64,000 bases of DNA from an uncultured bacterium (lineage in GTDB: Bacteria; Bacteroidota; Ignavibacteria; Kapaibacteriales; UBA2268): assembly GCA_942492935.1 (NCBI GenBank), contig OW818654.1, forward strand, positions 3,587,918 through 3,651,917, read 5' to 3'. Numbering within the stretch: position 1 is the stretch's first letter; each line of letters starts with the position of its first letter. Positions 4,312 to 63,470 of the stretch are shown piece by piece. A model generated the notes under the pieces. It had not been told where the DNA came from. It saw only the letters and a program-made list of their open reading frames with translations, and made no database searches. A program made the translations under genes and the position numbers.

Positions 4312-6906
4312 TTAATTTCTAAAATAAAATCTTGATGACTTAGCAATACGAATATAATGAGAATTTTGAGGCATCTTTACTTCTTCTCTTTTCATATTAT
4401 TTTTTATCTTATTTCGCAATTTAACGGTTTTTATATAATCAGAATTTTCATATCTTAAAATTTTACTTCTTATTTCAAATGCTTTTTCTATGTAAAATTT
4501 TGCTTTCTCATAGGATCCGGTTTGAAAAAGTGTTTCAGCAAAATTATAATAAGATAATGCTAAATCCGGATTATATTTATCTAAAGTTTTTTCCTTTATT
4601 TTAATTGCATCTATATTGTACTTATTAGAAAAATTATATTCTTTCAATTGAGCATAAGCAAAAGCGATGTTTGTATAATTTGCTGCTATTAAAATTTGAT
4701 TTTCTTCCGAAAAAACTAGATTACTATCTAATGCTTTGAAGAAATAGTTTAAAGATTTAGTATAATTACCAATACTTAAATAGGAAATTCCAATTTCATT
4801 ATATATAGCAGCTAAATGTGTTTTTGGTCTGTCCACTGATGTGATCAATATATCTAATTCACCGAAATTATTTGTAATAGTTTCCCAATTATCAGGTAAT
4901 TTTTTATATATTTCAGCAATTTTCAAGTAAACTGAATCCAAATCTGATTTTTGTTTATCCAATACATTTTCTAATATTTTTATTTCTTCTAAATAATTAT
5001 TTATTGCTAAAGATGACGATTCTAAAATAATATATAAGGAAGCAATATCATTATACGTTTTGGCAATTTCAATATCAACATCATCATCATTATCTTCATT
5101 ATCTAACAATTTATTATATATTTCCAATGCTTTTAAATAATACTTCAAAGATTTATTATATTCCTTTAAATTTTTATAAATTAAAGCCAATTTATTAAAT
5201 GAGTGTACCAAAGTAATACTACAATTACCAAATACTTCTTGTACTATATCAATTTTTTTTAAACAATATCCTATAGCATTATCATAATAGCCCATATAAT
5301 ATAAAGAATTTACAATATTATCATAAATTTCGACTAAATCAGGATGTTGTTTATTTGAAATTTTCTTTTTGATTGCCAATATTTTTTTTTCAAATAATAT
5401 TGAATTTTCGTAATCTCCAATTAATCTATATGTTGTTGCCAAACTTTTATAAGAATCAGCTAAATCAGGATGTTTTTTCTTTAAAATTTTCTTTCTAATT
5501 TCTAATAATTTCAAATCAAAAATGATTGAATTTTGGTAATCGCCTAAGAATCTATATGTTGTTGCCAAATTTTTATAAGATTCAACTAAATCAGGATGTT
5601 TTTTCTTTAAAATTTTCTTTCTGATTTCTAATAATTTCAAATCAAAATTGATTGAATTTTGGTGATCGTCTAAGAGTCTATATATTGTTGCCAAACTATT
5701 ATATGATTCGGCTAAATCAGGGTGATATTTACTCAAAATATTCTTTCTGATTTCTAATAATTTCAAATCAAACAAAATTGAATTTTGGTAATCGCCAAAA
5801 AGTCTATAAGTTGTTGCCAGACTTTTATAAGATTCGACTAATACAAGATGTTTTTTATATAAGATTTGGTTTCTGATTTCCAATACTTTTAAATCAAAAT
5901 AAATTGAATTTTGGTAATCCCCTAAACATCTATACGAAACAACTATTTTATTGTAAACTTCAACTAATTTTGGATGACATTTATTCAAAACTTTCTCTTT
6001 TATTTGCATTGCTTTTAAAAGAAACTCAAGAGATTTTCGATAATTATTTAATTGTTCATAAAATGAGGCTATCTTTTCATAATACTCTGCTAATTTAAAA
6101 GGATGTTCAACAAACATTTTCTCCTTAGTATTAAAAAACTTTAACTCATATTCTAAACTTTTCTGATAATTGCTGGATTGAAAAAATATTTCTGCCAAAT
6201 TATTCGATAAATCTGCAATTATACAATTTTCAATATCAAAATTTTTTATAATACTTTCTGCAAAGGCAATTAAAATATTTTTTGACTGATTGTCTAAATT
6301 TGAATAATTTTCAATTTGATTTGTTATATTATTAATTAGAATGCTGCAATTCTTTGTATTCGGATGCAATTTATTTTGAATAATTTTTTGGATTAATGGA
6401 TTGATATCTAACATATTATCTTCGATTCTAAGCCAGCCCCTTTTTATTAAAGAATTCAATGTTTTTTCAAACTCATTTTTAGTTTCAATAGTTATCGAAA
6501 AATATTTATGTAAATCATTCGAGCTAATTTTGATTGAGGGTAATATTGAGAAATAAAGAAGATACTGTTTTTCAATATCAATTAAAGACCTATATTCAAG
6601 CATCTTGCAAATATATTTGAAAATCTTCGTTTCTTTACTCTTAAAAAATATTTTTTCTTCAATATCAAAGGAAGGGTTTTCAGCTTTTTCATTGCATACT
6701 TTAATAGTTAATTCATCTAACTTCATCTGAAATTTTGATTTATCCTTAATCCTTTGAAAATTGATATCATCGAATAGCAATACTATAAGATTCTCATGAT
6801 TATAAGTACTAAACTGATTGATATTTGAATTAATTTCATCAAATAAATTGCAATTATCATTATTTGAAATTAATTTTATTGTTTCACTATTATTATTTGA
6901 TTCCAT
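4312..6906 (-). CDS. Tetratricopeptide (TPR_12-like) repeat protein, 864 aa, with N-terminal non-TPR domain
   Basis: About 14 consecutive ~42-aa repeats of form HPDLxxSYxxLAxxYRxxGDYxNSIxFDLKLLEIRKKIL. The N-terminal 280 aa has an hhhhDD motif (NLIVLLFDDINF) and an LPxxxK…FP-like segment reminiscent of the NB-ARC Walker B and winged helix, but no P-loop. Confidence 0.6.
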   Translation of the reverse strand: MESNNNSETIKLISNNDNCNLFDEINSNINQFSTYNHENLIVLLFDDINFQRIKDKSKFQMKLDELTIKVCNEKAENPSFDIEEKIFFKSKETKIFKYICKMLEYRSLIDIEKQYLLYFSILPSIKISSNDLHKYFSITIETKNEFEKTLNSLIKRGWLRIEDNMLDINPLIQKIIQNKLHPNTKNCSILINNITNQIENYSNLDNQSKNILIAFAESIIKNFDIENCIIADLSNNLAEIFFQSSNYQKSLEYELKFFNTKEKMFVEHPFKLAEYYEKIASFYEQLNNYRKSLEFLLKAMQIKEKVLNKCHPKLVEVYNKIVVSYRCLGDYQNSIYFDLKVLEIRNQILYKKHLVLVESYKSLATTYRLFGDYQNSILFDLKLLEIRKNILSKYHPDLAESYNSLATIYRLLDDHQNSINFDLKLLEIRKKILKKKHPDLVESYKNLATTYRFLGDYQNSIIFDLKLLEIRKKILKKKHPDLADSYKSLATTYRLIGDYENSILFEKKILAIKKKISNKQHPDLVEIYDNIVNSLYYMGYYDNAIGYCLKKIDIVQEVFGNCSITLVHSFNKLALIYKNLKEYNKSLKYYLKALEIYNKLLDNEDNDDDVDIEIAKTYNDIASLYIILESSSLAINNYLEEIKILENVLDKQKSDLDSVYLKIAEIYKKLPDNWETITNNFGELDILITSVDRPKTHLAAIYNEIGISYLSIGNYTKSLNYFFKALDSNLVFSEENQILIAANYTNIAFAYAQLKEYNFSNKYNIDAIKIKEKTLDKYNPDLALSYYNFAETLFQTGSYEKAKFYIEKAFEIRSKILRYENSDYIKTVKLRNKIKNNMKREEVKMPQNSHYIRIAKSSRFYFRN

Positions 6907-7119: not shown

Positions 7120-9177
7120 TTATTTTTCTATTCTAATTCTACCATCAACAGCAATAACAGTATCTTTTTTCCCTAATAGTGGGTTCAAATCAAGCTCTGA
7201 AATTTCAGGAGCAGCATCAAGTAAGGCACTTAACCTAACAATAATATCTGCAAATATTTCTTGATTGACTCCTTCACGTTTTCGGACGCCTTCAATTAGC
7301 TTATAAGATTTCAACGATTTTATCATAGTCAATGCCTCTACTTTACTGATTGGTGCCAATCCAAAAGACACGTCTTTCAGAACCTCTATAAAAATTCCTC
7401 CAAGTCCGCAAAGAATTATATGTCCAAAATTGTCTTCATGTTTTGCACCTACAAATAATTCAGTACCATTCAACATCGGCTGCAAAAGTACACCAATAGC
7501 TCCTTCAATTTCCATCATCTTTTCAAATTCTGCTTCTACAGTAACTGCGTGCCTTAAATTAAGTGCAACTCCTCCAACATCTGTTTTATGAATAGGTCCA
7601 ATCACTTTCATAACCACAGGAAAACCTAATTCTTCAGCAAATTTAACTGCCATTTCTTTAGTATTTGCTAATCGTTCTGGTACTCTTGGTATTCCTGCAG
7701 AATCTAATAGAATTTGTATTTTATCAGGTGAGAGATAACCACTTTCTGACTTATCTATAATTTCTCTGATTTTTACTCTGTCAATTTCTGGAAATTCATA
7801 AGTTTCTGCTGGTTTTGGAGTAGTATAAACTTTTGAAAGTGCTGCTCCTAAAGATACTTCATCTGTAAAATCAATTCTGCCAAGTGAAAGGAAATGCTGA
7901 ACTGCTTTTCCTGCTTGTACTACTGATGGTAAGCATGGATAAATTGGCTTCTTGCACCATTTCATTTTTTCGTGAAGAACATCATAAACGCCGGTTACAT
8001 CAAACATACCGGTAGTTCCAAATATTACTACAGAAGCATCAATATTATGAAATTCTCTATCTACATATTCAAGAATTGTTCCTAATTGGTCAGCACTACC
8101 AGTTGCGAGAAAGTCAATCGGATTAGAAACTGAAGAACCATGATAAAGTTGGGAAAGCAATTCTTCGGCAGCAGCACCTGATATTGGAGGTACATTCAAG
8201 CCACCTTTTGCTAAAGCATCAGTTAGCATAACACCAGAACCACCTGCATGAGTAATAACCGCTATATTCGGACCTTGCAATTCTTTGTGAAGTAGCACCC
8301 CTGCTACATAAACAAGTTCAGCCCTTGAATGACAACGAACAACTCCAGCTTTTTTAAACAATGCATCAACAGCTGCATCCGAACCAGCCAATGCTCCTGT
8401 ATGAGATGATACTGCTCTTGAACCAGCTTCAGTAGTTCCAGCTTTAATTGCTGCAATCCTACAACCTTTATTGATTAAAGAACGACAATGTTTGAGTAAT
8501 TTTTCTGGTTTTATGATTTGTTCAATATAAAATAATTTTACTCTTGCACTTGTGGCTGGGTCAAAATGTTCGTCCCAATATTCAAGCACTTCTTCTACAC
8601 CTATTTGGGCGCTATTTCCAACTGATAATATATTTGAAAATCTCAAACCTCTTGGCACAGCCATTTCCAAAATAAAGCATATTGTAGCACCTGAACCTGA
8701 AACTAAATCACAACCATTTTTTTGAGCCAATTGTGGAACTAAACCAGCAAACACACCTTTATAATTTTCATTGAGAACACCAATACAATTCGGTCCAATT
8801 AAAGAACCATTTACAGATTCTGTAATTTCAACTAATTTTGCCTCTAATTTCTTGCCTTCTGCTCCAAATTCACTAAAACCTGCTGATAATACAATAAATG
8901 CTTTTGTTCCTTTTTCTTTTGCAAGAATTTCCATAGCACCGGGTATTGCTCTTGCAGGAATTGCCAGAATTGCAAGGTCTGTATTTTCAATTTCAGAAAC
9001 GCTCTGATAACATTTCAAACCCTGAACTAAATTTTCTTTCGGATTAACAGCGGTAATTCTACCTCTGAATCCACCGTCAATGATATTTTTAATAATTTTG
9101 CCACCGGGCTTTTCTACATCATTCGAACCACCCACAATAACAATACTTTTCGGATTTAATAATTCTTTAACTAACAT
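7120..9177 (-). CDS. ADP-forming acyl-CoA synthetase (acetate--CoA ligase [ADP-forming], fused alpha/beta; NDP-forming family)
   Basis: N-terminal CoA-binding domain (IVIVGGSN…). Succinyl-CoA-synthetase-like ligase-CoA domain. C-terminal ATP-grasp (…VMKV…GGVAL…). 685 aa, typical of the fused Acd. Confidence 0.8.
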   Translation of the reverse strand: MLVKELLNPKSIVIVGGSNDVEKPGGKIIKNIIDGGFRGRITAVNPKENLVQGLKCYQSVSEIENTDLAILAIPARAIPGAMEILAKEKGTKAFIVLSAGFSEFGAEGKKLEAKLVEITESVNGSLIGPNCIGVLNENYKGVFAGLVPQLAQKNGCDLVSGSGATICFILEMAVPRGLRFSNILSVGNSAQIGVEEVLEYWDEHFDPATSARVKLFYIEQIIKPEKLLKHCRSLINKGCRIAAIKAGTTEAGSRAVSSHTGALAGSDAAVDALFKKAGVVRCHSRAELVYVAGVLLHKELQGPNIAVITHAGGSGVMLTDALAKGGLNVPPISGAAAEELLSQLYHGSSVSNPIDFLATGSADQLGTILEYVDREFHNIDASVVIFGTTGMFDVTGVYDVLHEKMKWCKKPIYPCLPSVVQAGKAVQHFLSLGRIDFTDEVSLGAALSKVYTTPKPAETYEFPEIDRVKIREIIDKSESGYLSPDKIQILLDSAGIPRVPERLANTKEMAVKFAEELGFPVVMKVIGPIHKTDVGGVALNLRHAVTVEAEFEKMMEIEGAIGVLLQPMLNGTELFVGAKHEDNFGHIILCGLGGIFIEVLKDVSFGLAPISKVEALTMIKSLKSYKLIEGVRKREGVNQEIFADIIVRLSALLDAAPEISELDLNPLLGKKDTVIAVDGRIRIEK

Positions 9178-31201: not shown

Positions 31202-32800
31202 TTATGATGGATTTGATTTGTCTTTTAATGCTGAAAGGATGTCAACACCTGTTGCATTTTCAATCATTTCAGAAAGGGAAATTACTGAACCGGGCAGTTG
31301 ATTTACTAATTTACTTAAACCGGTTTGCTCGCCGGAATTACCGTTTTCAATAACAGAAATTTTATCAATTTTGATATTTTTAACAACCCCAGTAAGCATT
31401 TCGGTAATTTGAGGGAGCATATTAAGCATAAATATTTTATTGCCTTCACCATTTGCAGATAGATACGCTTGAATTTTGCGGAGCAAAATTTCAATTTCTG
31501 CATTACCATCAGCAATAATACTTGCAGCTTCACCTTTTGCTTTTAATTCCATAGCTTCCTTTTCAGCTTTTGCAGGTTCAATCACATCAGCCATAAGTCG
31601 CTTTTGTTGCAATTTAATACGTTCTTCTTCGAGTTCCTGTTCGAATAAAACTTTTGCTTTTTGTCCAGCCACTTCTGCTTCTTTTTCTTTAATAATCGCA
31701 ACTTTTTCAAGTTCTGCTTTCTTTACTCTATAAGAATTATTTTCAATTTCAACATTAGTATTTGCTTTAGCGTTTGTAACTTTTACATTTTGTTCTGATT
31801 CAATTTGAGCTTGTTTAATATTTTGTTCTGCAACTGCTCTTGCTTTTTCAGACCTTTCCTTTGCAACAGCTTCAGCTTCTTGTGTAGCAGCTACTCTATT
31901 AGCATTTGCAATAGCAATATTTTGTTCAGTTTCAATTTGAGCTTTCTCAATTTCTTGTTTAGCTTTAGCTTTAGCTTTTTCTGCCCTTTCAAGTGAAAGT
32001 GATTCAGCTTCATGAGTGGTTGCTGTTTTATTAGCATTTGCAACAGCAATATTTTGTTCGGTTTCAATTTGAGCTCGTTGAATTTCCAATTTAACTAATG
32101 CTTTTGCTTTTTCAGCTCTTTGCGTTGCGAGTGCTTCTGTTTCTTCAGCTTGGGCTTTGCTATCAGCTTCGGCAATTCTTGCTCTTGTAATAACTTCTGC
32201 AGTTTTTACACGACCAATCGAATTCAGATAATCACTTTCATCAGAAATATTTGTGATTTTCAAAGTATCAAGAAGTAATCCTAATTTGTTCAAATCAGTT
32301 TCAGCTTCTTCCATCAACGACTCTGCAAATTTAAGTCTGTCTTCGTTCACTTCTTCAGGTGTAAGAGTAGCAAGAATACCACGAAGGTTACCTTCCAGCG
32401 TGTCTTTTGCAATTTGATGAATTTCACCTTCTGTTCTGTTTAAAAATCTTTCAACTGCATTTCCAAAACTTGGCTCAGTAGAATTAATTTTGATATTTGC
32501 AATTGCCTGAACAGCCAAAGGAATTCCTCCTTTTGAATAAGCATTTGCGATTGATAATTCAATAGGTATAGTATTTAATGACATACGTGCCGCTTTTTCG
32601 AGCAAAGGTATTTTCAAAGCCCTGCCGCCTCTTATCATTCTATAACCTACAATTTCACCATTGTTAGTTTTACGTTTTCTTCCAGATAATACGATAACTT
32701 CATTTGGTTGGGCAATTAAAAGTAATCTGCTAATAGTAATTATTATAACAACAATTGCTAATGCACCAATACCAGCTAATGCAAGAATAAAATCTTCCAT
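31202..32800 (-). CDS. Flotillin-like SPFH/band-7 protein (YqiK/FloT-like) with triplicated coiled-coil repeat
   Basis: N-terminal TM plus SPFH domain. Three ~40-aa repeats (EKAKA..QEIEKAQIETEQNIAIANAN…TQEAE). Gene order NfeD-flotillin. Confidence 0.75.
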   Translation of the reverse strand: MEDFILALAGIGALAIVVIIITISRLLLIAQPNEVIVLSGRKRKTNNGEIVGYRMIRGGRALKIPLLEKAARMSLNTIPIELSIANAYSKGGIPLAVQAIANIKINSTEPSFGNAVERFLNRTEGEIHQIAKDTLEGNLRGILATLTPEEVNEDRLKFAESLMEEAETDLNKLGLLLDTLKITNISDESDYLNSIGRVKTAEVITRARIAEADSKAQAEETEALATQRAEKAKALVKLEIQRAQIETEQNIAVANANKTATTHEAESLSLERAEKAKAKAKQEIEKAQIETEQNIAIANANRVAATQEAEAVAKERSEKARAVAEQNIKQAQIESEQNVKVTNAKANTNVEIENNSYRVKKAELEKVAIIKEKEAEVAGQKAKVLFEQELEEERIKLQQKRLMADVIEPAKAEKEAMELKAKGEAASIIADGNAEIEILLRKIQAYLSANGEGNKIFMLNMLPQITEMLTGVVKNIKIDKISVIENGNSGEQTGLSKLVNQLPGSVISLSEMIENATGVDILSALKDKSNPS

Positions 32801-36975: not shown

Positions 36976-38226
36976 TTATTTCAATTCTAATTCATGTATT
37001 TTGCTTAATTCAATCTCTGTTTGTTCGGAAGTAATCATATTTTTCAACAATACTGTATTTCTATTTAATTCTTCTTCAGCTACAATGACGGAGTATTTAG
37101 CATTAAATTTATTAGCTTCTTTAAATTGTGATTTCATAGACCTACGGTTAATATCTGTAATAACTCTTAAATTTTTATTTCTAAACAATTCTGCAATAGA
37201 ATTTGCTTTTGCACTTAAATTTTGATTAGCACATACTACATAAATATCACATTCTGAATCAGATTTTTTGGATATATTTAATGCTTCAAGAATTAATAAA
37301 ATTCTTTCAACACCCATAGCAAATCCTACAGCAGGATTAGCTTTCCCGCCTAATTGTGCAAACAAACCGTCATATCTACCACCACCACCAAATGAATCTT
37401 GAGCGCCCAACGCTGAAGATTGAAATTCAAAAACAGTATGGCAATAATAATCCAAGCCACGAACTAAACGTGGTTGAATTGTAAAATTAACATCTTCTGC
37501 GGAAAGTAATTTTTTGACTGTTTCAAAATGTGTTGAACTTTCTTCATCAAGATAATCAAGAATGACTGGAGCTTTGTTGATAACTTCAATATCCTTTTCG
37601 CTTTTTGAATCAAGAACTCTTAGAGGATTATTTTCCAATCTCTGCTTAGATTCTTCTGATAAGAATTCTTTATTTTGATTTAGATATTCTATCAATGCAG
37701 TTCTGTAATTCTGTCTTGAGTTTTCTGTACCGAGTGTATTTATCAATAAATTATATTCACTAATACCAAGTTCTTTAATAATTTTATTAGCTAAAAGCAG
37801 TATTTCAACATCTGCTTCTGGATTTGGTGAACCAATAGATTCTGCTCCATACTGATGAAATTGGCGTAAACGTCCTTTTTGTGGTCTTTCATAACGGAAA
37901 TAAGGACCTATATAATATAATCTTAAATTTGCTCCATCTCTATCTAATGAATTTTGAATAACTGCTCTCACAAGTGCGGCAGTTTGTTCAGGACGAAGTG
38001 TGATTGATTCTCCACCTTTATCAGTAAAAGTGTACATTTCTTTATTTACAATATCGGTATCATCACCAATGCTACGTGAAAATACTTCAGTTTTTTCAAA
38101 AATAGGGGTTCTTAATTCCTTATAGCCATAAATTTGGGATACATTTCTGAATACATTTTCTACAAAATGCCAATCAGAAATAGTAGCAGGAATAATATCT
38201 TTTGTACCACGAACAGTATTAATCAT
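36976..38226 (-). CDS. hisS: Histidine--tRNA ligase
   Basis: Class II aaRS motifs (…YRYERPQKGRLRQFHQ…, …GGGGRYDGL…). C-terminal anticodon-binding domain. 416 aa. Confidence 0.9.
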   Translation of the reverse strand: MINTVRGTKDIIPATISDWHFVENVFRNVSQIYGYKELRTPIFEKTEVFSRSIGDDTDIVNKEMYTFTDKGGESITLRPEQTAALVRAVIQNSLDRDGANLRLYYIGPYFRYERPQKGRLRQFHQYGAESIGSPNPEADVEILLLANKIIKELGISEYNLLINTLGTENSRQNYRTALIEYLNQNKEFLSEESKQRLENNPLRVLDSKSEKDIEVINKAPVILDYLDEESSTHFETVKKLLSAEDVNFTIQPRLVRGLDYYCHTVFEFQSSALGAQDSFGGGGRYDGLFAQLGGKANPAVGFAMGVERILLILEALNISKKSDSECDIYVVCANQNLSAKANSIAELFRNKNLRVITDINRRSMKSQFKEANKFNAKYSVIVAEEELNRNTVLLKNMITSEQTEIELSKIHELELK

Positions 38227-38435
38227 AATGAATTTCTTATTTAAGTTCTTAAAAACAACTAAAATAATAAAACAAATCTTAAAAATAAAACAATTAAGAT
38301 TTTTTTTGGAAAAATATGATATATAATAACTTTCTACAAGCTCAATTTTTCAAATTTGAAAATGTCAACGGCTGATATTTTTATTTTTCTTATTTTTGTA
38401 TATTGTAAAATGATAAATTATGGAGATTATTTTTT

Positions 38436-39482
38436 ATGAAATTTATATTATACATTTGTGTTGCTACAATAATATTATTAGTATCTTGTTCGGATAATGG
38501 CTCGAATCAAACAAGCGATGATAAAATTAATGTATTATATCTTATGGATAGTACAGGACATTATAGTCAATTTGGTATTGAAGCAATGAACGGAATGAAA
38601 TTGGCTGGAAAAAACTCTGAAAAATTAAATATAATAACAATAGATACTAAATCTGATGCAAATTTTGCAATCATTGAATTTAATAGAATAATTTCTGAAA
38701 AGAAAATAACAGCTGTCATTACATTAACAAGTTGGGTTTCAAATGCAATTTCACCAATCGCAAAACAAAATAATATTTCACATTTTGCTATTGGTAGTGC
38801 TGTTTTTGATAATAAATCCTTAAACAATACAATTAGATTTACAACAGATGTACTTAAAGAATCACAGTATATTCAAACATATCTGAATAAATTTAACAAA
38901 GTTGCAATGATGTATTTTGTGAATGATTATGGAATTGGCTGGAAAAATAGAATGGAGCAAGGATTGGGAAATAAACTCACAAAAATTGTTAGTTATAGTG
39001 ATTTAAATGATGATTTTACAGATGAATTAAATTCGATTAATACCGAAAAACCTGATGTTTTGCTATTAATTAGCACAAAAGAAGCTGCCATTATTGCAAA
39101 ACAAGCTGCTCAACTTGGAATCAAAACACAGTTAGTTGGCGTTAGACCTACATTTTCTGACTATTTAAAAGATGAACCTACAGCTGAAGGATTTATTTTT
39201 TCATATCCAGCAATGGATTTTACAAATAAATTATTTGCTGATTATCAATCAATTTATGGAAAAAAAGCATCTGCTTTTTCAGCTGAAGGTTATGATTTAA
39301 TCAATTCATTAATTGATGCAATTAATTTAAATAAAATTACAAATACCGAAATTTTCGATTTTTATAAGAATAAATCTTATAATGGTGCTTTAGGTAAAAT
39401 TACATTTGATGAATTTGCCCAAGCAGATTATAAGTTTAGCTTAATGAAACTAACAAATAAAAATTATGTTACAATTGAATAA
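38436..39482 (+). CDS. Periplasmic-binding-protein type I lipoprotein (LivK/Peripla_BP_6-like ABC substrate-binding protein)
   Basis: Lipobox LLVSCSD. Overall fold-level resemblance to the Leu/Ile/Val-binding protein family. Confidence 0.5.
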   Translation: MKFILYICVATIILLVSCSDNGSNQTSDDKINVLYLMDSTGHYSQFGIEAMNGMKLAGKNSEKLNIITIDTKSDANFAIIEFNRIISEKKITAVITLTSWVSNAISPIAKQNNISHFAIGSAVFDNKSLNNTIRFTTDVLKESQYIQTYLNKFNKVAMMYFVNDYGIGWKNRMEQGLGNKLTKIVSYSDLNDDFTDELNSINTEKPDVLLLISTKEAAIIAKQAAQLGIKTQLVGVRPTFSDYLKDEPTAEGFIFSYPAMDFTNKLFADYQSIYGKKASAFSAEGYDLINSLIDAINLNKITNTEIFDFYKNKSYNGALGKITFDEFAQADYKFSLMKLTNKNYVTIE

Positions 39483-59412: not shown

Positions 59413-61698
59413 ATGTCATATTATTCTGAAGAAATTAATAGTAATTTAAGTCATAATATATCTGCTATTACTGAAGGTTTGAATCCTGAGCAAAAATCCG
59501 CAGTTGAAATAATTAATGGACCTATTCTTGTACTTGCTGGTGCAGGTAGCGGAAAAACAAGAGTTTTGACAAACCGTATTGCATATTTAATTGAAAAAAG
59601 CATCAATCCTTATAATATTCTTGCCCTCACATTTACAAATAAAGCTGCAAATGAAATGAAGGAGAGAATTTCACGGCTCGTACATTACAGATTGGCAAAG
59701 AATATTTGGGCTGGTACATTTCATTCTGTTTTTGCAAGAATCCTAAGAATTGAAGCTGAAAATATTGGATATCAAACAAATTTTTCAATATATGACCAAG
59801 ATGACTCGCTAAGTGTTGTTAAAAATATAATGAAAGATTCTGGATATAGTTCAGCAAAACTCCAACCAGCAAATGTGAGAGGAGTAATTTCTTCTAATAA
59901 AAATAAAATGATTAGTTGGCAAGAATTTGAAAGAAATGCAAGTAATGCAATAGAACGACAAATTGCTGATATATTCAGAGAATACGAAACTGTTTTACTG
60001 AAAAACAATGCTATGGATTTTGATGATTTACTTTTAAATTTTATAATTTTATTGAAAAAATCTAAAGAATTACTCAATAAATATCAGCAACAGTTTAAAT
60101 ATATCCTTGTTGATGAATATCAGGATACAAATAAAGCACAATATATTGCAATTCAAATGCTTGCAAAAGCACATCAGAATATTTGTGTTGTTGGTGATGA
60201 TGCACAAAGCATTTACCGTTGGCGTGGAGCTGAAATTCAAAATATTCTTGATTTTCAGAAAGATTATCCATATTCTAAAATAGTTCGTCTTGAACAAAAT
60301 TACAGGTCAACAAAAACCATATTAGCCGCTGCACATGCAGTTATTTCAAACAATAGCAAGCAAATCGCAAAAAAATTATGGACTGATAATCCAGATGGTG
60401 ATTTAATTGAGGTCTTAGCTTGTAATGATGACCGAGAGGAAGCAAGAAAAGTAGCTGATTTAATACAAAAAATGTATAATTCAGGTCGAAATTTGAAAGA
60501 TTTTGCTGTTTTGTATAGAACAAATGCCCAATCACTTGCTTTAGAAACATCATTAAGAGCTGCAAATTTACCCTATATAATCGTTGGTGGGGTTTCCTTT
60601 TACAAGAGAAAAGAAATCAAAGATGTTCTTGCTTACATTAGAATTTTGATGAATAATCGTGATGCTGAATCATTATTACGAATAGTTAACGAGCCACCAC
60701 GTGGGCTTGGGCAAACATCAATCAATCATTTAAAGGAATTTGCAAAAGAATATGATAAAACATTATATGAAGTATTCCAAAATGCAGATAGGGTTGTAAG
60801 TTTGCAAAATAGAGCTGCTCAATCAGCAAAATCTTTCATAGAATTTCTCAATAAATACCGTTCTTTACTCAATGATTTACCGGTTTATGAAGTAATTACC
60901 GAATATATCAACGCAACTGGTATATTGGATATGTACCGTCAAATAAATACGGAAGACTCATTAGACAGATGGAACAATATCAATCAATTATTATTTGATA
61001 TTAAGCAATTTTTCATAAATAATCCTGAATCAACAATTGAGGATTATGTTCAGCAAATTTCATTAGTAGCTGATATTGATGAAAAAGATTTGCATGGTAA
61101 TGCAATAACATTAATGACATTACATTCCGCAAAAGGATTGGAATATCCTTGTGTATTTATCACTGGTATAGAAAAGGGTTTATTTCCATTAACAAGAATG
61201 GATTTTACTAAAGATGAGGAAGAAGAGGAAAGACGCTTGTTTTATGTTGGGATAACAAGAGCAAAAGAAAAATTATTTCTTAGTTATGCACTTAGAAGGG
61301 CAAAATTTGGTGATGTTCAAACATCAGTGCCGTCTCCATTCTTGAGAGAAATACCTGATAATCTTACAAAATACGGATTGAAAGCCAAAACACAAACTTC
61401 AAATGAAGTTTTTCTCCCACAAAAAGCATATACAGGCAATCCATTTCAAAAGCCAGTTCCAAAACCAGTAGTTAAAAGTTCATATAGTCAAATACCTGAT
61501 GCAGAACAAAGTTATTCTCAAATACCAGTTGATGATTCAAGTTTTAATGTTGGAGATAAAGTTCATCATTCACAATTTGGAAAAGGTACAATTTCGGCAA
61601 TAACTGGAGTTGGTCAATCCAAAAAAGCAACTGTAATATTTAATTCTGTAGGTCCGAAGCAATTAATTTTACAATACGCGAAATTACAAAAATTTTAA
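59413..61698 (+). CDS. UvrD/PcrA/Rep-family ATP-dependent DNA helicase
   Basis: Walker A GAGSGKTRVL. Motifs DEYQDTN, YRS, and a C-terminal Tudor-like tail. 761 aa. Confidence 0.8.
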   Translation: MSYYSEEINSNLSHNISAITEGLNPEQKSAVEIINGPILVLAGAGSGKTRVLTNRIAYLIEKSINPYNILALTFTNKAANEMKERISRLVHYRLAKNIWAGTFHSVFARILRIEAENIGYQTNFSIYDQDDSLSVVKNIMKDSGYSSAKLQPANVRGVISSNKNKMISWQEFERNASNAIERQIADIFREYETVLLKNNAMDFDDLLLNFIILLKKSKELLNKYQQQFKYILVDEYQDTNKAQYIAIQMLAKAHQNICVVGDDAQSIYRWRGAEIQNILDFQKDYPYSKIVRLEQNYRSTKTILAAAHAVISNNSKQIAKKLWTDNPDGDLIEVLACNDDREEARKVADLIQKMYNSGRNLKDFAVLYRTNAQSLALETSLRAANLPYIIVGGVSFYKRKEIKDVLAYIRILMNNRDAESLLRIVNEPPRGLGQTSINHLKEFAKEYDKTLYEVFQNADRVVSLQNRAAQSAKSFIEFLNKYRSLLNDLPVYEVITEYINATGILDMYRQINTEDSLDRWNNINQLLFDIKQFFINNPESTIEDYVQQISLVADIDEKDLHGNAITLMTLHSAKGLEYPCVFITGIEKGLFPLTRMDFTKDEEEEERRLFYVGITRAKEKLFLSYALRRAKFGDVQTSVPSPFLREIPDNLTKYGLKAKTQTSNEVFLPQKAYTGNPFQKPVPKPVVKSSYSQIPDAEQSYSQIPVDDSSFNVGDKVHHSQFGKGTISAITGVGQSKKATVIFNSVGPKQLILQYAKLQKF

Positions 61699-61723
61699 AT
61701 GTTTGGGTTGGATTTTGGAATCT

Positions 61724-62063
61724 GAAACAAGTTCAGAATGACACTTATTAGATGTCCAACACTTCAAAAGTGTTGGACATCTTGTATCAAAATTGACAGT
61801 ATTCAATAATGATTTCTGAAATGAGTTCAGAATGACTGTAATGTTTCCTTGTCATTCCCAACTTGATGCGGAATCTAATATATGCAGATGTCCAACACTT
61901 TCAAAGTGTTGGACATCTTGTATCAAAATTTACAGTATTCAATAATGGTTTCAGAAACAAGTTCAGAATGACATAATTGTTTTCCTTGTCATTCCTCACT
62001 TGATGCTGAATACACATCAAATTATAATTGAAAATGTCCAACCATAACAATATAGTTGGACAT
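61724..62063. repeat. About 2.7 tandem copies of a ~136-bp unit, each with two hairpins (GAATGAC…GTCATTC and GATGTCCAACAC-loop-GTGTTGGACATC), filling the convergent uvrD-like/rseP intergenic region
   Basis: Direct alignment by eye. S-motif GAAA(C/T)(A/G)AGTTCAGAATGAC at 61724, 61818 and 61954. 12-bp-stem hairpins at 61751-61781 and 61887-61917. Degenerate third copy at 62035-62063. Confidence 0.65.
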
Positions 62064-62105
62064 AAGAAAATAATTTTGACAAATAAACTTTGGTTATCAA
62101 AATTC

Positions 62106-63470
62106 TTATAAAAATCTTGATACGTCATTTATTATAACATAAATTGATAATACGATTATTAGTATAATTCCTGCTTGCTGAATGTAGAGTTTTGCTTTTG
62201 TCGGAATTTCGCGTCTAAAAATACCTTCTATTATTAGCATAGCAATATGCCCGCCATCAAGAGCTGGTAATGGTAGAATATTCAAAAATCCAAGGGAGAT
62301 TGAAAGCAATGCCATAAAATTCAGCAAACTTGCTAATCCTTCCTTCGCTTGTTTTGAAGTCATATCAAAAATCATAACTGGACCAGCTATTGATTCTTTG
62401 AATGTTACATTACCTTTAAACATTTGAGCAATTGATGAAACAATAAAGACTGTTTTATCAACTGTTTCTGATGCACCAAATTGAATTGATTCAATTAAAG
62501 AATAATCAATTTTAGTTAGTGGTGCGATTCTTAATTGTATTCCAAGTAAACCGTCATCGTTTAATTGAGCAGAAGAACTCATCAGTTGATTGTTTCTTAG
62601 CCATTCTACATTTACTTGTTGATTTTTAAATTTTTTGAGTGTTTCTTGTAATTTATTTTGTGCATTAATTGGAATAGAATTTACAGCAATAATTTGGTCG
62701 CCACTAATAATACCTGCTTTTTCAGCTGGTCTGCCTTTAACAACATCAGCAACAAAAACTTGTATCCCGCCTGGATTCAATCCAAGTGGAGATTTCCCTG
62801 CAAATAACTTTACTAATTTTCCGCCATCATATTTCAAATTAACATTTTCATTATTTCGTATAACTTCTACATTGAGTTGGTCACCAAAATCTTTCAAAGT
62901 TAAACCATAAATAATTTCGTTCCAAGTTCGTACTTTTTCATTATTTATTTTGATGATTTTGTCATTATTTTGAAAACCAATTTGCTCGGCTATTGAACTT
63001 GTTTCAACTGTTCCAACAGTAGTTACTCCGAGTTCTGTTCTACCTTCGGAAAATGCAATGAAGCTGAAAATGATTGCAGCAAGTACAAAATTCATTATTG
63101 CACCAGCACTCATGACTAGAATTTTTGCAAAAGAACCCTTTGACCTAAATTCGTAAGGTTGTGGTGGTGCATTGATAAAATCTGTATCCATACTTTCATC
63201 TACCATACCTGAAATTTTGACATAACCTCCAATTGGAAACATCGCAAGACGATAATCAGTATTACTTCCCAAATCAATATCATCGTTTAACTTCCCAAAG
63301 TTAAATCCAGTCTTTCTATTCCAACCAAGTAATCTTGGTCCCATACCAATGCAAAATACTTCTGCCCGCATACCCGTTAACCTTGCAGCTAGAAAGTGTC
63401 CGAGTTCGTGAATTGTAATCAAAACTCCGATTACAAGTACAAAATAAAATATATTACCGAAAATATCCAT
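62106..63470 (-). CDS. rseP: RIP site-2 metalloprotease RseP
   Basis: HELGHF zinc motif at N-terminal TM. Tandem PDZ domains. C-terminal TM helices. 454 aa. Confidence 0.85.
   Translation of the reverse strand: MDIFGNIFYFVLVIGVLITIHELGHFLAARLTGMRAEVFCIGMGPRLLGWNRKTGFNFGKLNDDIDLGSNTDYRLAMFPIGGYVKISGMVDESMDTDFINAPPQPYEFRSKGSFAKILVMSAGAIMNFVLAAIIFSFIAFSEGRTELGVTTVGTVETSSIAEQIGFQNNDKIIKINNEKVRTWNEIIYGLTLKDFGDQLNVEVIRNNENVNLKYDGGKLVKLFAGKSPLGLNPGGIQVFVADVVKGRPAEKAGIISGDQIIAVNSIPINAQNKLQETLKKFKNQQVNVEWLRNNQLMSSSAQLNDDGLLGIQLRIAPLTKIDYSLIESIQFGASETVDKTVFIVSSIAQMFKGNVTFKESIAGPVMIFDMTSKQAKEGLASLLNFMALLSISLGFLNILPLPALDGGHIAMLIIEGIFRREIPTKAKLYIQQAGIILIIVLSIYVIINDVSRFL

Follow-up and report, generated by a model that had tools for sequence, protein, structure and literature searches.

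Within the 64-kb stretch of DNA that was analyzed (hereafter the window), an intergenic spacer of 407 bp (61699-62105) lies between uvrD/pcrA on the plus strand and rseP on the minus strand, and this spacer is filled with repeats. The repeat that the initial annotation had reported between convergent genes was present at its coordinates, and Pfam identified the flanking genes as UvrD/PcrA (+) and M50/RseP (-) in convergent orientation, both of them complete. The first element of the array, R0, begins 18 nt past the end of uvrD. All components of the locus are compiled in Table 1.

Table 1. Genes, palindromic elements and connecting segments at the uvrD-rseP locus (positions refer to the window; for the CGTC/SRM-type elements, tag, arm, loop, arm and tail are given in this order)
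Feature	Position	Strand	Remarks
UvrD/PcrA-type helicase, 761 aa	59413-61698	+	Pfam UvrD-helicase, UvrD_C and PcrA_UvrD_tudor, matched to residue 760
R0, CGTC/SRM-type	61716-61743	-	TGTC-ATTCTGAA-CTTGT-TTCAGATT-CCA; one stem mismatch; no inverted partner
Hairpin 2, copy A	61750-61782		Perfect palindrome AGATGTCCAACACTT-CAA-AAGTGTTGGACATCT, 15-bp stem; 52 nt past the uvrD stop codon
Conserved linker, copy A	61783-61809		TGTATCAAAATTGACAGTATTCAATAA
R1, CGTC/SRM-type	61810-61837	-	AGTC-ATTCTGAA-CTCAT-TTCAGAAA-TCA; one mismatch
Spacer core, facing tags of R1 and L2	61838-61849		Full 14-nt spacer 61837-61850 = TGTAATGTTTCCTT; homologous to the copy C spacer
L2, CGTC/SRM-type	61850-61878	+	TGTC-ATTCCCAA-CTTGA-TGCGGAAT-CTAA; two stem mismatches
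Hairpin 2, copy B	61886-61918		Perfect palindrome AGATGTCCAACACTT/AAGTGTTGGACATCT, 16-bp stem, 1-nt loop
Conserved linker, copy B	61919-61945		Direct repeat of the copy A linker
R2, CGTC/SRM-type	61946-61973	-	TGTC-ATTCTGAA-CTTGT-TTCTGAAA-CCA; two mismatches
L3, CGTC/SRM-type	61987-62014	+	TGTC-ATTCCTCA-CTTGA-TGCTGAAT-ACA; two mismatches
Hairpin 2, copy C, degenerate	62034-62063	-	ATGTCCAACtatattgttatgGTTGGACAT then TTTCAATTAT; 43 nt past the rseP stop codon
RseP-type site-2 protease	62106-63470	-	Pfam Peptidase_M50 and PDZ; convergent with uvrD

To characterize the array, its repeats were located and compared with each other. A repeat search detected a direct repeat of 97 nt at a spacing of 136 nt (61750-61846 and 61886-61982, 89% identity), which confirmed the period of the 136-bp unit proposed by the initial annotation, although the array turned out to be less regular than had been described. 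The arm ending in GAATGAC (TG..TCTGAAA..AGTTCAGAATGAC) is present in three copies, starting at 61716, 61810 and 61946 and ending at 61742, 61836 and 61972, while the arm beginning with GTCATTC (TTTCCTTGTCATTCC..) occurs twice, at 61844 and 61981. The GATGTCCAACAC palindrome was found as two perfect copies and one degenerate copy; in the perfect copies, its stem comprises 15-16 bp instead of the 12 bp given before. Copy A of the unit is 42 nt shorter than its counterparts due to the absence of the GTCATTC arm. An identity of 85-95% had been stated for the copies. This range holds for A and B (87%) but not for B and C, which are 69% identical overall (82% within the first 66 nt, but 57% in the remainder, the second half of copy C having diverged). 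Tandem Repeats Finder missed the array, and no further copies of its pieces were detected anywhere else in the 64-kb window. That the repetition goes beyond chance can be concluded from a 30-mer spanning the linker, which occurs twice in the window versus zero occurrences expected by chance, and from the folding of the 407-nt spacer compared to shuffled sequence (z = -9.2 and -10.7 for RNA of the two strands, -10.8 for DNA). The linkers of copies A and B are identical at 29 of 30 nt. Since the segments between the repeats are themselves repeated and do not represent unique spacers, the earlier statement that the array is not CRISPR-like was borne out.

Other tandem repeats were also noticed in the window. 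A 126-nt repeat (5329-5934, 4.8 copies, 83% matches) is located inside an 864-aa ORF (4312-6906, minus strand) and thus is a coding repeat of 42 residues rather than an intergenic array. A 300-nt repeat (2.2 copies) covers the window start (1-665), and a 132-nt repeat (2.5 copies, 31787-32121) lies inside ORF 31202-32800 (-). Besides, gene orientation changes from mostly minus to mostly plus at the divergent pair 36976-38226 (-) and 38436-39482 (+), and the minimum of the cumulative GC skew falls into the same interval (38226-38436). This switch could be a replication origin or a mere gene-strand effect.

The initial annotation had interpreted GAATGAC and GTCATTC as the arms of one hairpin. 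They belong, however, to two independent 25-nt palindromic elements of opposite orientation that face each other, and the pairing of the two motifs is a mere junction between them. The spacer contains five copies of this element (family 1), three of them oriented one way and two the opposite way. Each has a tag (TGTC in four elements, AGTC in one), an 8-nt arm starting with AT, a 5-nt loop and a short tail, which reads CCA(A), TCA(T), CCA(T), CTA(A) or ACA(C). According to the repeat search, L2 is the inverted partner of R1 as well as of R2. One or two stem mismatches were found in every copy, all of them of the T.T or A.A kind with no wobbles, and for this reason the five elements look decaying rather than active; with two mismatches, the hairpin of R2 itself is degraded. 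Along the spacer, the elements follow the order R-(hairpin 2)-R/L-(hairpin 2)-R/L-(hairpin 2), with conserved 30-nt linkers and spacers of 14-15 nt.

Family 1 is represented in many other genomes. When the 19-mer GAAAYRAGTTCAGAATGAC was scanned against one genome per species (596 Gb), at least 119 genome stretches matched, compared to approximately 17 expected by chance according to an estimate, and the 19-mer of R0 (GAAACAAGTTCAGAATGAC) is identical to the copies in these stretches. The hosts, Bacteroidota among their phyla, include Flavobacteriia, Sphingobacteriia, Bacteroidales, Ignavibacteria, Balneolales, Calditrichia, several Patescibacteria and Melainabacteria, and furthermore Elusimicrobia, Spirochaetes, Dehalococcoidia, Planctomycetota, Nitrospirota, Thermodesulfobacteriota, Campylobacterales as well as Gamma- and Alphaproteobacteria. 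Among the matches listed, the loci have only about 27 nt in common, their wider flanks being unrelated. The upstream pentamer ATTCT, which was not part of the search string, was present in 105 of the 121 copies among the matches listed. With it, the 8-bp stem (ATTCTGAA/TTCAGAAT) that encloses the 5-nt loop is complete, and GAC follows. The stems of the copies in other genomes are perfect, and neighbouring variants exhibit compensatory stem changes (ATCCTGAA/TTCAGGAT, ATGCTGAA/TTCAGCAT and ATCCCGAA/TTCGGGAT). Due to the complete stem, the compensatory changes and the unrelated flanks at these other sites, each arm of the presumed hairpin 1 is to be regarded as an independent element with the layout GTC-ATTCTGAA-CTTGT-TTCAGAAT-CTN.

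A scan of the 119 fetched genome loci for GTC followed by an 8-bp stem with a loop of 4-6 nt yielded 209 elements in 846 kb, whereas nine were obtained with shuffled sequence. The base preceding GTC was T in 134 elements, C in 57, A in 10 and G in 8. Loops at these other sites read CTTGT, TTTAT or CTCGT. Among the tails, CTC, CTA and CTT predominate, and CCA was counted eight times. Inverted dimers with the tags pointing outward prevailed over those with the tags pointing inward (45 versus 6 in the 119 loci); the spacers of the dominant type measure 5-110 nt, mostly less than 40 nt. Solitary copies were sometimes situated exactly in the loop of a terminator-like hairpin of the host (L003, L023, L081, L107 and L141/L148/L150).

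In 5.1% of 136 copies, the sequences abutting the element pair in a perfect stem of 8 bp or longer, compared to 0.3% in permuted-flank controls, and this excess hints at an insertion of the element into hairpin loops. The 19-mer was moreover encountered in 15 viral-contig stretches (L139-L153, corresponding to 14 distinct IMG/VR contigs) with GC contents of 0.31-0.55. It is possible that such contigs are a vehicle of the spread across phyla, or that they are misclassified host DNA.

Among the matches listed, four of the 119 fetched loci carry an ORF for a GIY-YIG protein of 91-109 aa that matches PF01541. In L113, L036 and L010, elements are present on either side of this ORF, and in L021 on its 3' side. 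L113 is a Lutibacter MAG, and its gene has GTCATGCTGAACTTGTTTCAGCATC on the upstream side and CACTGAAACAAGTTCAGTGTGAC at the stop codon; in L036, the gene is enclosed by the searched element together with arrays of half elements. The C-terminal codons and the stop codon of the gene are supplied by the element itself in L021 and by a GTCATTGCGAGG-type variant in L010. This variant is not of the CTGAA type, which flanks the GIY-YIG ORFs of L113, L036 and L021. In L036, a gammaproteobacterial MAG with an Ssn-like GIY-YIG gene at 7381-7656, a region (7160-8000) was noticed in which half elements (TTGTCATCCTGAAC...) recur every ~15-25 nt on both sides of the gene in addition to complete elements. 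No GIY-YIG ORF was detected within the 64-kb window or near the 19-mer copies of the viral contigs, and a PDB sequence search with one of the Ssn-like proteins gave no match. The notion that every element lies at the 3' end of a GIY-YIG gene was rejected, as the gene is present in four of 119 loci and adjoins the searched copy in two of them. By analogy, this ratio is what a many-to-one relationship like that between REPs and RAYT would give.

The second module, hairpin 2, is a perfect palindrome of 33 nt (AGATGTCCAACAC...GTGTTGGACATCT) in the window and of 31-33 nt across the copies in metagenomes. The metagenomes were scanned with the pattern GATGTCCAACAC-N(4-10)-GTGTTGGACATC. Hairpin 2 was found in 18 metagenome contigs (GC 0.29-0.42), in which its flanks are unrelated. 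An additional C-G pair of the stem (CACC...GGTG), symmetric on both arms, occurs in 6/18 contigs and 7/23 copies. In five of the contigs (L121, L124, L126, L130 and L136), the palindrome is located 10-15 nt after the end of an ORF, in L136 between convergent ORFs. Tandem arrays were identified in L125 (three copies, 168-nt period) and L123 (two copies, 84-nt period). The array of L125 lies within a larger composite unit that is single in L134 and L138. Hairpin 2 is often accompanied by a half-site and a TATATATA run, and in L127 a CGTC-type element lies 17 nt away from it, an arrangement also seen for copy A of the window. The 18 loci had no protein family in common other than low-complexity repeat ORFs, and the palindrome was absent from 0.85 Mb of hairpin-1 loci and from the viral contigs. 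Rfam contained no match, and no published description of hairpin 2 was found in the literature searched by sequence; full-text searches with either hairpin sequence returned only chance primer matches. Judged from its occurrences, hairpin 2 appears to be a separate, uncatalogued family of dispersed palindromes that are typically located just after stop codons.

In the vicinity of hairpin 2, two kinds of sequences attracted attention. Low-complexity tandem DNA repeats, which translate as NAHRKASNVHRK... or SKLFKTLSKEFK...., lie 0.2-5 kb from the palindrome in L126, L129, L131 and L134. In L128 (934-1508) and L137 (1133-1707), hairpin 2 has GTAG-type palindromes (GTAGAGACACAGCATGCTGTG.CTCTAC) as neighbours, which brings the number of palindrome families mixed in these spacers to three.

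Regarding transcription, the initial annotation had brought up stacked terminators and a tandem sRNA array. The former found marginal support in a single terminator-like site, namely the degenerate copy C of hairpin 2, read on the strand of rseP, since only 62063-62034 (-) passed the intrinsic terminator scan. Neither of the perfect hairpin 2 copies A and B has a T run behind it, whichever strand is read. The sRNA array found no support, as no Rfam match at or near any family threshold was obtained with E values up to 10 and permissive searches revealed only sub-threshold noise from eukaryotic miRNAs and snoRNAs. Inside uvrD (61201-61291), a sub-threshold match to RF03531 (n00280) was observed (38.8 bits compared to a gathering score of 65.2). 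According to Rfam, this family is an sRNA of Clostridioides difficile contained in a helicase gene, and the match probably reflects conserved helicase coding sequence.

How did the array come into being? The spacer is probably a BIME-like mosaic of two palindromic repeat families, the composite unit of which was subsequently amplified in tandem at this locus. Of the three options raised by the initial annotation, a family of the REP/MITE type is the one that found support, namely from the dispersal of both modules in many genomes and from the agreement of module 1 with the published CGTC-REP/SRM architecture. A composite MITE ranks among the rival explanations. Local amplification is indicated by the fact that the linkers and the junction spacers of 14-15 nt, which lie outside both elements, are duplicated together with them, and that the composite was not found elsewhere in the sequences searched. 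No other copy of the 136-bp composite was detected in the rest of the 64-kb window or, by blastn with the whole spacer, in plasmids and phages, and for a spurious 75-aa ORF spanning one unit there was no candidate among 5.8 billion predicted proteins. In the nearest relative found (L120, UvrD 79% identical), the region downstream of uvrD is not syntenic and neither of the elements is present.

The following course of events is conceivable. The two kinds of palindromes would have come to lie together in the uvrD-rseP spacer, the copies of family 1 presumably arriving by Ssn-linked spread. Afterwards, unequal recombination or slippage may have multiplied the whole unit in the manner of BIMEs. 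Most economically, the unit would be parsed as L element-10 nt-hairpin 2-30 nt-R element, i.e. as a tags-outward dimer with a structured spacer, and units so defined would be joined by the 14-15-nt junctions. The first unit would then have lost its L element, while the last one would have lost its R element and retained a decayed hairpin 2, both units having been eroded after the amplification. The dimer spacer of 73 nt assumed by this parse lies at the long end of the range determined for the other genomes, and the tags-inward pairing at 14-15 nt seen in the spacer corresponds to the type that is rare there. In its present host, the array may act as a two-way transcription stop or as a 3'-end stabilizer between the convergent genes, as suggested by its position and by analogy with REPs.

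Alternatively, the array might go back to a composite MITE, although this is unlikely. It would be a mobile unit of ~122 nt with L and R as terminal inverted repeats and hairpin 2 inside, which inserted repeatedly next to itself. The L and R arms are in fact inverted repeats (75-79% complementary over 24-32 nt), the larger composite unit that contains hairpin 2 in another metagenome is both dispersed (L134 and L138) and tandem (L125), and L127 displays the order L-R-hairpin 2 in a short stretch. On the other hand, the 14-15-nt junctions of the units are homologous, which independent insertions would not produce, and a second copy of the composite was lacking in the window, plasmids, phages and the 5.8 billion predicted proteins. 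Target-site duplications, in turn, are indistinguishable from the period in a tandem array.

It is quite improbable that merely the genes' own terminator hairpins were duplicated at this site, without any mobile or repeat-family identity. The initial annotation had linked such a simple duplication to a unit unique to the locus, and where searched, the 136-bp composite is apparently unique. Moreover, the third palindrome resembles a terminator of rseP, and the closest relative found possesses different genes past uvrD, so the uvrD-rseP junction is lineage-specific. By contrast, neither module is confined to the locus: amid unrelated flanks, module 1 reappears in at least 119 genome stretches and hairpin 2 in 18 metagenome contigs, and the tag, stem, loop and tail of module 1 are arranged as in a repeat superfamily already described. 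The recurrence of both modules largely refutes a plain duplication. Finally, it is hardly credible that the spacer is transcribed and works at the RNA level, be it as a series of small RNAs or as a cis-regulatory RNA, despite the strong structure predicted for both strands and the frequent transcription of REP-type repeats downstream of genes (PMC3733652), given the result of the Rfam searches, the T.T and A.A mismatches in place of one-strand G.U wobbles, folding that is just as strong on either strand and for DNA, promoter-like matches that are weak only (9 versus 5.3 expected) and the action of Ssn on single-stranded DNA but not on RNA (PMC11893778).

Thus, the array is an ordinary REP/BIME-like feature and not a new system. 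The appropriate annotation is that of a repeat region (REP/BIME-like) and not of genes, small RNAs or CRISPR. Its AT-rich 25-nt element is near-identical to the nucleotide across many bacterial lineages and viral contigs. The published search pattern for Ssn-related motifs (SRMs) is blind to this very widespread variant, and surveys of Ssn/SRM systems in low-GC phyla therefore probably undercount, the phyla concerned being Bacteroidota, Ignavibacteriota, Patescibacteria and Melainabacteria. Ssn enzymes are under development as sequence-specific cutters of single-strand DNA, which makes the putative, highly conserved recognition hairpin a useful lead. The GATGTCCAACAC palindrome adds a repeat family for which no description was found and which forms tandem arrays in several organisms. 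A joint reading of both families is possible but doubtful: GTC-ATTCTGAA-CTTGT-TTCAGAAT might mark a far larger, horizontally moving population of Ssn-type hairpins and nucleases, some copies of which inserted into the loops of host terminator hairpins, while the GATGTCCAACAC palindrome would be a second family with its own partner protein, both families spreading as one composite module.

Among the systems known so far, the CGTC-tagged REPs (Di Nocera, De Gregorio & Rocco 2013, BMC Genomics 14:522; PMC3733652), which include dRS3 of Neisseria and RPE-4/RPE-6 of Rickettsia, and the SRMs are close to module 1, and by its sequence this module can be assigned to the CGTC-REP/SRM superfamily as an AT-rich member. 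CGTC REPs have an unpaired, terminal tag that is often TGTC and may also be CCTC, stems of 8-9 bp with complementary A-T residues almost invariably at positions 1 and 2, loops of 4-5 nt and a short unpaired tail with the consensus CCA (PMC3733652). They occur in many dispersed copies per genome, mostly as dimers, some of which have spacers with stem-loops of their own, and adjoin the 3' ends of ORFs between convergent or unidirectional genes (PMC3733652). The elements studied here share the terminal unpaired TGTC tag, the 8-bp stem starting with AT, the 5-nt loop and the short tail, and likewise the array is intergenic, close to the 3' ends of the convergent uvrD and rseP genes. Inverted dimers are also frequent, with a spacer able to hold its own stem-loop. 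What separates them from the four published families is the AT-rich stem (TCTGAA/TTCAGA), the stems of the latter being G+C-rich. While CGTC REPs are found mainly in Alphaproteobacteria, the hosts of the present element belong to the FCB group and to many other low-GC lineages. In addition, every local copy carries stem mismatches. Within the 64-kb window, the five copies are all located at one locus.

For Neisseria, dRS3 has been redefined as NTS with the sequence CGTCATTCCCGCGMAVGCGGGAATCYRG, and NTS has been generalized to the SRMs, which flank ssnA, typically on both sides (Chenal et al. 2025, Nat Commun 16:2388; PMC11893778). The product of ssnA is a single-domain GIY-YIG protein of 94 aa (cd10448), and Ssn binds and cuts its motif solely as single-stranded DNA and on one strand only (PMC11893778). 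It has been proposed that ssnA and its motifs constitute a domesticated mobile element that seeds repeats, and a clustering of motifs at particular loci has been described for Neisseria (PMC11893778). The elements of the window match the NTS layout CGTC-ATTCCCGC-loop-GCGGGAAT-CYRG and are also clustered at one locus, and the AT-rich variant flanks small single-domain GIY-YIG genes in L113, L036 and L021. The 64-kb window is devoid of an ssnA-like gene. The published SRM pattern, HGTCWYN(0-2)YYVSBRHN(0-5)WNVSBRGN(0-2)RNCYNB, had no match in the window on either strand because the AT-rich stem lacks G or C at the S positions.

The arrangement of the elements, on the other hand, recalls the BIMEs of enterobacteria, which are tandem mosaics of alternately oriented REPs and conserved linkers. 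BIME/REPIN units consist of GTAG-tagged REPs and are tied to RAYT tyrosine transposases. By contrast, the tag of the present elements is GTC, a second, unrelated palindrome family is mixed in and no RAYT is implicated. What the array has in common with BIMEs are short palindromes alternating in orientation, conserved linkers and a tandem iteration downstream of genes and, by analogy, a likely role as punctuation of transcription or mRNA stability.
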